The notes under the pieces were generated by a model. The model did no database searches. It was given only the letters and a program-made list of their open reading frames with translations, and was not told the origin of the DNA. From the sequence record OQ938542.1: 64,000 nucleotides of DNA; one strand, given 5' to 3'. Below, one piece after another: positions 36,450 to 36,965 of this stretch (positions are counted from its first letter, which is position 1; each line of letters starts with the position of its first letter). This DNA comes from Escherichia phage vB_EcoP_PE007. A program made the translations under genes and the position numbers.

Positions 36450-36965
36450 ATGTCAGAAGAAATTAAAGTCCATTTCACCAACTACATTGGAACCAAGTGT
36501 GTAAATGGTTTCCGAATGAACAAAGAAACATACTGCAAACTTCGAGGCTGGGATGTACCAGCAGATGAAGATCCACTAGAAGAAGGTTACTTAGTCGAGT
36601 ACCCAGACTCTAAGTCCAACCAACCTCAATTTCGTGGTTATCCTCAGTTCCGTGGCTATATTAGCTGGTCACCTAAAGCTGCATTTGAAGCTGCATACCA
36701 TGACGTAGAAAAAGGTTGTACCTTTGGTCATGCAGTAGAGCTTCTCAAATCAGGCTTCAAACTAGCCCGTAAAGGCTGGAATGGCAAAGAGATGTATATT
36801 TCCTATGTTGACCCAAAAGAGTGGAATAGTAGTGAACTGGAGCGTCCATGGGATGAAGACCTTAAGCCACGCCCGTGGATTGGTATCAAAACCGTCGATA
36901 ATGAGTATATGCCTTGGGTTCCATCCCAATCGGATGTATTAGCAGAAGACTGGGTAATTCTATAG
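36450..36965 (+). CDS. protein with C-terminal DUF2829-like (Tad2-like) domain
   Basis: ATG 36450 with GAGG RBS; 171 aa; C-terminal FGHAVELLKSGFKLARKGWNGKEMYI...YMPWVPSQSDVLAEDWVIL recalled as DUF2829 signature. Confidence 0.5.
   Translation: MSEEIKVHFTNYIGTKCVNGFRMNKETYCKLRGWDVPADEDPLEEGYLVEYPDSKSNQPQFRGYPQFRGYISWSPKAAFEAAYHDVEKGCTFGHAVELLKSGFKLARKGWNGKEMYISYVDPKEWNSSELERPWDEDLKPRPWIGIKTVDNEYMPWVPSQSDVLAEDWVIL

Follow-up and report, generated by a model that had tools for sequence, protein, structure and literature searches.

We analyzed a 64,000-nucleotide (nt) stretch of DNA from Escherichia phage vB_EcoP_PE007 (sequence record OQ938542.1), and this whole stretch is referred to below as the window. 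The analysis centered on one gene, called X-Tad2 here, which encoded a protein with a C-terminal Tad2-like (DUF2829) domain and a conserved N-terminal domain that we refer to as X. The gene was flanked by a gene for an Acb4-family protein and by a 97-amino acid (aa) open reading frame (ORF97), and the convergent virion RNA polymerase (vRNAP) gene followed. The coordinates of these features are listed in Table 1.

The source phage was an N4-like phage of Escherichia coli, a Gamaleyavirus (Schitoviridae) similar to ECBP1. The X-Tad2 protein matched phrog_872 over its full length (E = 1.6e-62). It exceeded the single-domain size of about 80 to 105 aa that is typical of characterized Tad2 proteins, although this size is not a strictly defining criterion.

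Table 1. Features at and around the X-Tad2 gene, in positions of the window (CDS, coding sequence; TRF, Tandem Repeats Finder)
Feature	Position	Strand	Remarks
Primase gene	28838-31048		Hotspot boundary opposite vRNAP
RuvC-like protein	32700-33254	+	phrog_159; 35% identical to CB1 gp74 (N4 gp46-like)
gp47-like protein	33256-33696	+	phrog_7641; follows RuvC-like gene
tRNA-Ile, anticodon AAT	35561-35635		ARAGORN; one confident tRNA in 33800-35900
Acb4-family (PF13876, Phage_gp49_66) protein, 130 aa	35939-36331	+	Directly upstream of X-Tad2; N4 gp48 ortholog
Inverted repeat, 8-bp stem, T-rich tails on both strands	36412-36432		Between Acb4-family gene and X-Tad2; terminator-like scan
GAGG ribosome-binding site (Shine-Dalgarno)	36441-36444	+	5 nt ahead of X-Tad2 ATG; read in sequence
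X-Tad2 CDS	36450-36965	+	ATG start, 171 aa plus stop; phage N4 gp49 ortholog; ORF list and sequence
N-terminal X domain, aa 10-83	36477-36698	+	Predicted beta-beta-alpha-beta-beta-alpha; motif YIGTK..PM..Y..LRGW.VPADE.P.EEGYLVEY...GYISWSPK..FE.AY
18-nt tandem duplication (QFRGYP x2)	36624-36659	+	X domain loop; TRF period 18, 2.0 copies, 83% match
Tad2-like (DUF2829, PF11195) domain, aa 91-170	36720-36959	+	Pfam, PDB sequence matches, Foldseek, residue mapping to SPO1 Tad2
Hypervariable Tad2 insertion, aa 119-142	36804-36875	+	Between N-terminal strands and C-terminal sheet; position of HgmTad2 beta2-beta5 insertion
ORF97, 97 aa, phrog_29107	36974-37267	+	Co-oriented, same transcription unit, downstream of X-Tad2
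Terminator-like hairpin, 11-bp stem, bidirectional	37271-37296		Between + strand unit and convergent vRNAP gene, common to both
vRNAP gene, 3,590-aa ORF	37301-48073	-	Convergent with X-Tad2 unit

The Tad2 domain and its pocket

A preliminary description of the window, made from its letters alone, had recognized a DUF2829 signature in the C-terminal part of the protein, and database searches confirmed this assignment. In a hidden Markov model (HMM) search, aa 91 to 170 matched Pfam family PF11195 with high significance (E = 3.3e-24; score of 85.7 bits, with the gathering score at 25; alignment to profile positions 2 to 72 of 73). The best sequence match among solved structures was MoTad2 (9EIB/8V3E; E = 1.5e-19), followed by the SPO1 Tad2 protein (8SME/8WJE; 6e-14), with weaker matches to HgmTad2/AcrIIA7 (8kbi, 9kzr) and SptTad2. 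The identity of the domain to MoTad2 (46%) was also higher than its identity to SPO1 Tad2 (42%).

The predicted structure pointed to the same family. An AlphaFold2 monomer model of the X-Tad2 protein, built on 53 homologs, had a mean predicted local distance difference test (pLDDT) score of 84.7, and the score was about 90 in the Tad2 core. When this model was compared to the PDB with Foldseek, the top 24 matches were all Tad2 chains (E = 1e-6 to 2e-5), and nothing else was significant. In the case of SPO1 Tad2, the target-normalized TM scores were 0.77 to 0.86, with E values of about 1e-6.

The residues of the canonical ligand pocket were largely preserved. Yirmiya et al. identified W25, N26, I63, T65, D67, H71, W73, S76, T78, and D79 as the residues with which SPO1 Tad2 contacts 1''-3' glycocyclic ADP-ribose (gcADPR) or its waters. 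In an HMMER alignment to SPO1 Tad2, whose numbering was checked at F44, these residues corresponded, in the same order, to W110, N111, I146, T148, D150, M154, W156, S159, S161, and D162. Eight of the 10 residues were identical; the change of T78 to S161 was conservative, and H71, a water ligand, was lost to M154. Furthermore, the HgmTad2 residues whose mutation lowered gcADPR binding in the work of Li et al. (W21/N22 and S90/T92/D93) corresponded to W110/N111 and S159/S161/D162. Seven positions (W110, N111, G112, W156, S159, Q160, and D162) were invariant in the 53 X-Tad2 homologs, which extended down to about 48% identity. Judged from sequence and predicted fold, the C-terminal domain is a genuine member of the Tad2 family, and its canonical pocket is intact.

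The founding Tad2 sponge, Gp34.65 of phage SPO1 (8SME/8SMF/8SMG), shared its Pfam family, its predicted fold, and a WVPSQ(T/S)D motif with the X-Tad2 protein. However, SPO1 Tad2 is an 89-aa, single-domain protein of a Bacillus myovirus, whereas the X-Tad2 protein had, in addition, an N-terminal domain of 88 aa, and its beta2-beta5 insertion was longer. The two proteins also differed in the SPO1 H71 position noted above and in the residue that follows WNGK, which was E in the X-Tad2 protein and N in SPO1 Tad2. HgmTad2/AcrIIA7 (8KBI-8KBM) has the DUF2829 fold, and its gcADPR-binding W/N and S/T/D residues were conserved in the X-Tad2 protein; the structural alignment gave about 32% identity, and the HgmTad2 insertion is larger and binds cGG and cyclic GMP-AMP (cGAMP).

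The kinship with AcrIIA7 bears on the idea that the X-Tad2 protein is an AcrIIA7-like anti-CRISPR. AcrIIA7 is itself a DUF2829 protein, and annotation of the Pharokka type assigned the name "anti-CRISPR protein" to X-Tad2 orthologs in Mimir124, Huey, Louie, and a Klebsiella phage. To our knowledge, E. coli carries no type II-A Cas9 systems, which counts against such a role. In addition, Li et al. failed to reproduce any inhibition of Cas9, in vitro or in vivo, either with HgmTad2/AcrIIA7 or with further Tad2 homologs. Their work showed HgmTad2/AcrIIA7 to be a sponge for gcADPR and cyclic dinucleotides, and Yirmiya et al. came to the same conclusion. We consider an anti-CRISPR function extremely unlikely.

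The most variable part of the Tad2 domain was the insertion at aa 119 to 142, which had a column entropy of 2.69 bits versus about 0.95 bits in the Tad2 core and a pLDDT of 66 to 69 in the AlphaFold2 model. Several unrelated alleles of the insertion were observed among Gamaleyaviruses that were otherwise 80 to 97% identical, and the canonical pocket was invariant. Such a pattern is in keeping with recombination or with an arms race at a second binding site. In HgmTad2 and MoTad2, a second pocket that accommodates cyclic dinucleotides or cyclic UMP (cUMP) is formed by the insertion at the equivalent place in the fold.

This raised the question of whether the protein is a sponge whose relevant ligand lies outside Thoeris, with the second pocket taking up the Pycsar signals cUMP and cyclic CMP (cCMP) or the cyclic dinucleotides of the cyclic oligonucleotide-based antiphage signaling system (CBASS). 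MoTad2, the closest solved relative, inhibits Pycsar through its second pocket, and HgmTad2 and SptTad2 bind cGG and cGAMP in their insertion domains. The insertion of the X-Tad2 protein was about as long as that of MoTad2, and its hypervariability in close relatives is what an arms race predicts. However, the ADP-ribose (ADPR)-type pocket was the part that did not vary in the 53 homologs, which argues for that pocket as the selected function. Moreover, the dinucleotide contacts of HgmTad2 sit in an insertion that could not be aligned with confidence and that was modeled with the low scores given above, and the adjacent Acb4-family gene would already cover a CBASS signal. For these reasons, a principal ligand outside Thoeris seemed unlikely.

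The PE007 copy also carried a substitution near the canonical pocket. Residue 114, two positions past the phosphate-binding WNG loop, was E (codon GAG, 36789-36791). This change was private to PE007 among the 53 homologs, 47 of which had G at the position.

The N-terminal X domain and its partners

The N-terminal region of about 88 aa is a conserved globular domain. It carried the conserved motif YIGTK..A.PM.R..YN.LRGW.VPADENP.DEGYLVEY.DGG..NHPDF.GYISWSPKDVFE.AY, and 20 of its columns did not vary between the standalone X proteins of widely different phages. Y12, K16, Y28, R32, W34, E40, E50, Y51, D53, N57, Y70, S72, W73, and S74 were invariant residues of X. Sequence searches of Pfam, NCBIfam, and the PDB gave no match to the domain, and no solved structure matched it with confidence. 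It was modeled with a pLDDT of 88.5, and the monomer consisted of four main strands and two helices.

This region had been described at first as an extra N-terminal segment with tandem QFRGYPQFRGY repeats. Both the region and the repeat exist, but the region proved to be a conserved domain and the repeat a nearly private duplication in one of its loops. The two QFRGYP copies differed at three nucleotides, all of them synonymous. The duplication was absent from the 52 other aligned homologs, including the closest phage relatives, and among the sequences read it recurred only in one metagenomic protein (P0001) that was 94% identical. The loop was modeled with lower confidence (pLDDT of about 70).

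The X family was large. A profile search of 1.84 billion representatives yielded 2,485 clusters, defined at 50% identity, with E values of 1e-3 or better, and X was found in 121 phage records. About two-thirds of the best 150 X-family representatives had a Pfam partner, namely, Sequestin (PF21825) in 44, Tad2 in 39, Acb4 in 11, and the Acb2/Tad1 hairpin in 6. When the 150 representatives were classified a second time with the X region masked, 40 were X-Tad2, 37 X-Sequestin, 6 X-Acb4, and 4 X-Tad1 proteins. The rest comprised several triple fusions, a few standalone X proteins, and about 40 proteins with unrecognized partners, which could be new sponge candidates.

Standalone X genes encoded proteins of 75 to 76 aa. 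In two of the three contexts examined, an Acb4 gene was located 3 to 4 nt downstream. This arrangement is the X-Acb4 fusion in split form, and it suggests coexpression of the two genes. In Erwinia phage phiEaP8, the standalone X gene occupied the slot directly before the vRNAP gene.

Among characterized proteins, the counterpart of X was found in RyR Tad (gp68 of Pectobacterium phage vB_PatP_CB1). The alignment of X to the N-terminal domain of RyR Tad (residues 1 to 71) had an hhalign probability of 96.8% (E = 2.8e-10), and a Foldseek search of BFVD with X identified an RyR-domain protein of Yersinia phage TG1 (E = 2.6e-4). Thus, X is a homolog of the RyR Tad N-terminal domain. As in the X-Tad2 protein, this domain is part of a two-domain sponge encoded in an N4-like hotspot. 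However, the ligand-binding domain at the C terminus of RyR Tad, which is a dimer, is all helical and RyR Repeat12-like rather than Tad2, and its gene is located beside the primase gene and not the vRNAP gene. In the crystal, the gp68 N-terminal domain formed a domain-swapped dimer with a five-stranded sheet, and a fragment with this domain alone (gp68_N; residues 1 to 86) had no apparent anti-type I Thoeris activity (Fedorova et al., bioRxiv 10.64898/2026.06.04.730250).

Other sponge fusions were similar in outline. The Acb4-Tad2 protein of Pasteurella phage Pm86 and the Acb4-Sequestin protein gp59 of Pseudomonas phage Ab09 also join a Tad2 or Acb4 module to another small oligomerizing domain within one polypeptide. 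Each half of those fusions is a known sponge, whereas in PE007 Acb4 was encoded by a separate neighboring gene and Tad2 was fused to X. We found no paper that linked X to the other sponge families. Three named proteins were also considered as identities for X and rejected. Lockin has been reported to be absent from INPHARED genomes, whereas X was present in phage records, as noted above. Acb5 is tetrameric, and most of its homologs among completely sequenced phages belong to phages of Streptomyces and Mycobacterium. TadIV-1, which has 92 aa, is confined to Straboviridae.

By analogy with gp68, X would most likely dimerize and act as an all-purpose partner to which sponge domains are joined. 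A rival explanation, which overlaps with the sponge model presented below, gives X the main activity, through the binding of a small-molecule signal or of a host or defense protein, and treats Tad2 as interchangeable cargo. X was more conserved than most of the protein, with 20 invariant columns in its standalone forms, and the phiEaP8 gene showed that it occurs alone. Furthermore, its partners and neighbors (Tad2, Sequestin, Acb4, Tad1/Acb2, and RyR Tad) are structurally unrelated, and a specific X interface with each of them is therefore not possible. Sequestin was discovered by the same guilt-by-fusion reasoning. On the other hand, the result with gp68_N and the role of this domain in dimerization in the crystal count against an activity of X itself, and we regard the idea that X carries the main activity as doubtful.

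It is possible, and we propose it tentatively, that X is a widespread anti-immune module in its own right, beyond a dimerization handle. It could be a new sponge, or it could neutralize a conserved host or defense component or a decoy system that senses sponges. A role of this kind would explain the extreme conservation of X from Clostridium phages to coliphages, its standalone occurrence, and its association with at least five unrelated sponge partners. If this proposal is true, the unrecognized C-terminal partners of X would lead directly to new families of sponges, as with RyR Tad. In our view, X is the part of the locus that is worth pursuit. The family is large and has no name, and it occurs together with essentially every known sponge family, among them Tad1, Tad2, Acb2, Acb4, Sequestin, and RyR Tad. 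Its function could reveal a general principle of sponge assembly or a new immune-evasion activity, and X is easy to test because it is present in the model phage N4.

Predicted ligand and function

The gene upstream of X-Tad2 encoded a second candidate sponge. Its product matched PF13876 with an E value of 4.2e-25 and was 47% identical to N4 gp48; the ORF was counted from the first ATG, and relatives are annotated with a start 12 nt later. Chang et al. identified PF13876 as the Acb4 family, whose members are sponges for 3'3'-cGAMP, and the locus is predicted to encode two adjacent immune-signal sponges.

Fedorova et al. (bioRxiv 10.64898/2026.06.04.730250) described an anti-signaling hotspot that extends from the primase gene to the vRNAP gene in N4-related phages and holds Tad2, Tad3, Acb4, Sequestin, the RuvC-like Bes1, and Bes2. 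In PE007, the order of genes in this interval was primase, Sak4-like AAA_24, single-stranded DNA-binding protein (SSB), RuvC-like, gp47-like, tRNA/noncoding, Acb4 family, X-Tad2, ORF97, and vRNAP. The X-Tad2 gene was located between the two boundary genes and beside an Acb4-family gene, and this setting therefore fits an anti-signaling role. The pair of X-Tad2 and Acb4 genes recurred in the unrelated 38.6-kb coliphage Huey, where it was located after the lysis genes.

The N4 gp49 protein and its Enquatrovirinae orthologs have the same two-domain architecture, and N4 gp49 was 71% identical to the PE007 protein. As in PE007, their genes are the last or second-to-last plus-strand genes before the vRNAP gene and follow the Acb4-family gene. 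The PE007 copy differed from these orthologs in its QFRGYP duplication, its insertion allele, the G114E substitution, and the presence of ORF97 downstream.

The ligands of Tad2-family proteins vary and include 3' cyclic ADPR (3'cADPR), His-ADPR, N7-cADPR, cUMP/cCMP, or cyclic dinucleotides. Type I Thoeris is inhibited by SPO1 Tad2 and Thoeris types I, II, and IV by Tad2_71, and HgmTad2 also binds CBASS dinucleotides. MoTad2 (also ModTad2) is a sponge for the type II Thoeris signal His-ADPR and for the Pycsar signal cUMP. Its insertion is similar in length to that of the X-Tad2 protein, but it is a single-domain protein and does not inhibit type I Thoeris. The pocket motif of the X-Tad2 protein was WVPSQSD, and the closest known motif was the WVPSQTD of SPO1 Tad2. 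All validated type I inhibitors with the motif (SPO1 Tad2, Tad2_70, Tad2_71, Tad2_82, and Tad2_83) had Q at this position. In contrast, the type II-only binders had V or S (MoTad2, with WTPSVSD, and Tad2_76), and Tad2_68 had I. This correlation covers fewer than 10 proteins; thus, 3'cADPR is favored but not established as the ligand. In the screen of Hadary et al., six of the eight homologs whose GWNG and WxxSxxD motifs were intact were active against one or more signaling systems.

Fusion to a second domain is compatible with Tad2 function. Tal et al. reported that Tad2 and Acb4 are often fused, and in their work the Acb4-Tad2 fusion of Pasteurella phage Pm86 blocked both Thoeris and CBASS. 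Active Tad2 proteins with an N-terminal fusion lend indirect support to the tetramer predicted for the X-Tad2 protein.

We consider it probable that the X-Tad2 protein is a two-domain sponge in which a tetrameric Tad2 domain sequesters an ADPR-derived signal of Toll/interleukin-1 receptor (TIR) proteins, next to an Acb4 homolog. By analogy with solved Tad2 proteins, the Tad2 domain would form a homotetramer, and two pockets between protomers would take up the signal. The likeliest ligand would be 3'cADPR (1''-3' gcADPR) of type I Thoeris, and the pockets might also accept His-ADPR or N7-cADPR. With the signal sequestered, the Thoeris effector would stay inactive and infection would proceed, and the adjacent Acb4 homolog would cover the cyclic dinucleotides of CBASS. 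Thoeris is the most likely target, with other targets possible. The anti-Thoeris sponge put forward in the preliminary description thus held up as a predicted function, supported by the HMM match, the fold, the conserved pocket residues, and the genomic setting.

Several points weigh against the predicted sponge function. About half of the Tad2 homologs in the screen of Hadary et al. inhibited nothing that was tested, and the inactive set included Tad2_73, the sole homolog with a long N-terminal extension, although this extension was not X. The specificity of Tad2 proteins is not readable from sequence. Because an X-type domain alone was without anti-type I Thoeris activity in RyR Tad, X is an unexplained component of the predicted sponge. 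The G114E substitution might alter ligand affinity. Finally, we found no published experiment on any X-Tad2 protein, N4 gp49 included. Peptides of the X-Tad2 protein were not found in the supplementary tables of Hadary et al., of which Table S1 was available in part, and the Panoptes paper contained no experimental data on N4 gp48 or gp49. That N4 Acb4 triggers Panoptes was stated by Fedorova et al. (bioRxiv 10.64898/2026.06.04.730250) only.

The peculiarities of the PE007 copy are relevant to the view that it is a decaying or neutral passenger, impaired by the loop duplication and by G114E. The substitution was unique among the homologs, the 6-aa duplication was nearly private, and the surrounding locus was a mosaic within a hotspot of gene turnover. 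The backbone at 28000-34000 was 97.4% identical to ECBP1. At 35900-37300, ECBP1 covered only 67% of the sequence, and Bas96, E20, and F22 covered all of it at about 86%. By these comparisons, the X-Tad2 locus is mosaic, as expected of a gene-exchange hotspot. However, the ORF was intact, had a good ribosome-binding site, and kept all of the invariant residues of the pocket and the X domain. The duplication copies differed only synonymously and were present in a second sequence, which suggests that the duplication is tolerated, and SPO1 Tad2 has N rather than G at the position of E114. A decaying copy seemed very unlikely.

The Tad2 assignment itself is not new. RefSeq names the orthologs "DUF2829 domain-containing protein," that of Shigella phage Moonfish is named "Thoeris anti-defense 2-like protein," and the hotspot preprint of Fedorova et al. 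(2026) had already placed Tad2 genes in the hotspot in N4-related phages. In an N4-like phage, a Tad2-like gene is to be expected; it is one more member of a widespread family and carries little weight alone. With this assignment, N4 (gp48 and gp49) and Gamaleyaviruses that are therapeutic candidates join the phages with a predicted pair of Acb4 and Tad2 sponges. This pair is relevant to the prediction of host range on strains that carry Thoeris or CBASS.

Other features of the locus

The X-Tad2 gene had been described as a discrete unit flanked by terminators. A hairpin followed by T residues was indeed found upstream, but the next terminator-like site came only after ORF97; the X-Tad2 unit therefore consists of two genes. 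The scan for terminator-like sites identified 12 sites in the region, compared to 3.7 ± 1.9 expected.

ORF97 matched PHROGs (phrog_29107; E = 2.6e-45), the sole database in which it had a match, and no match was found in Pfam, the PDB, or NCBIfam. An ORF of the same size (97 aa) was located at the same position in Bas96, whereas ECBP1 and N4 had no annotated ORF there; the slot held different small ORFs in other relatives. The slot is a variable position at the end of the hotspot, and ORF97 may be a further anti-defense candidate.

At the other side of the noncoding region, the RuvC-like and gp47-like genes are probably the counterparts of the Bes1 and Bes2 positions in the Pseudomonas N4-like hotspot. 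The preliminary description had placed a noncoding RNA island next to X-Tad2. One bona fide tRNA-Ile was found in this island, which is upstream of the gene, but the rest of the stretch (33800-35900) had only Rfam matches below threshold, such as tmRNA-like matches at 34592-34744 (31 bits versus a gathering score of 47). Relatives are annotated with a pseudo tRNA-Thr or tRNA-Val in this stretch.

Some public labels in the region were inconsistent. Annotation of the Pharokka type also labeled Acb4-family relatives "anti-CRISPR." In the Klebsiella phage records OY979416.1 and OY979417.1, the stretch that matched the locus carried the name "terminase large subunit" or the name "virion RNA polymerase," and these labels look like annotation errors.

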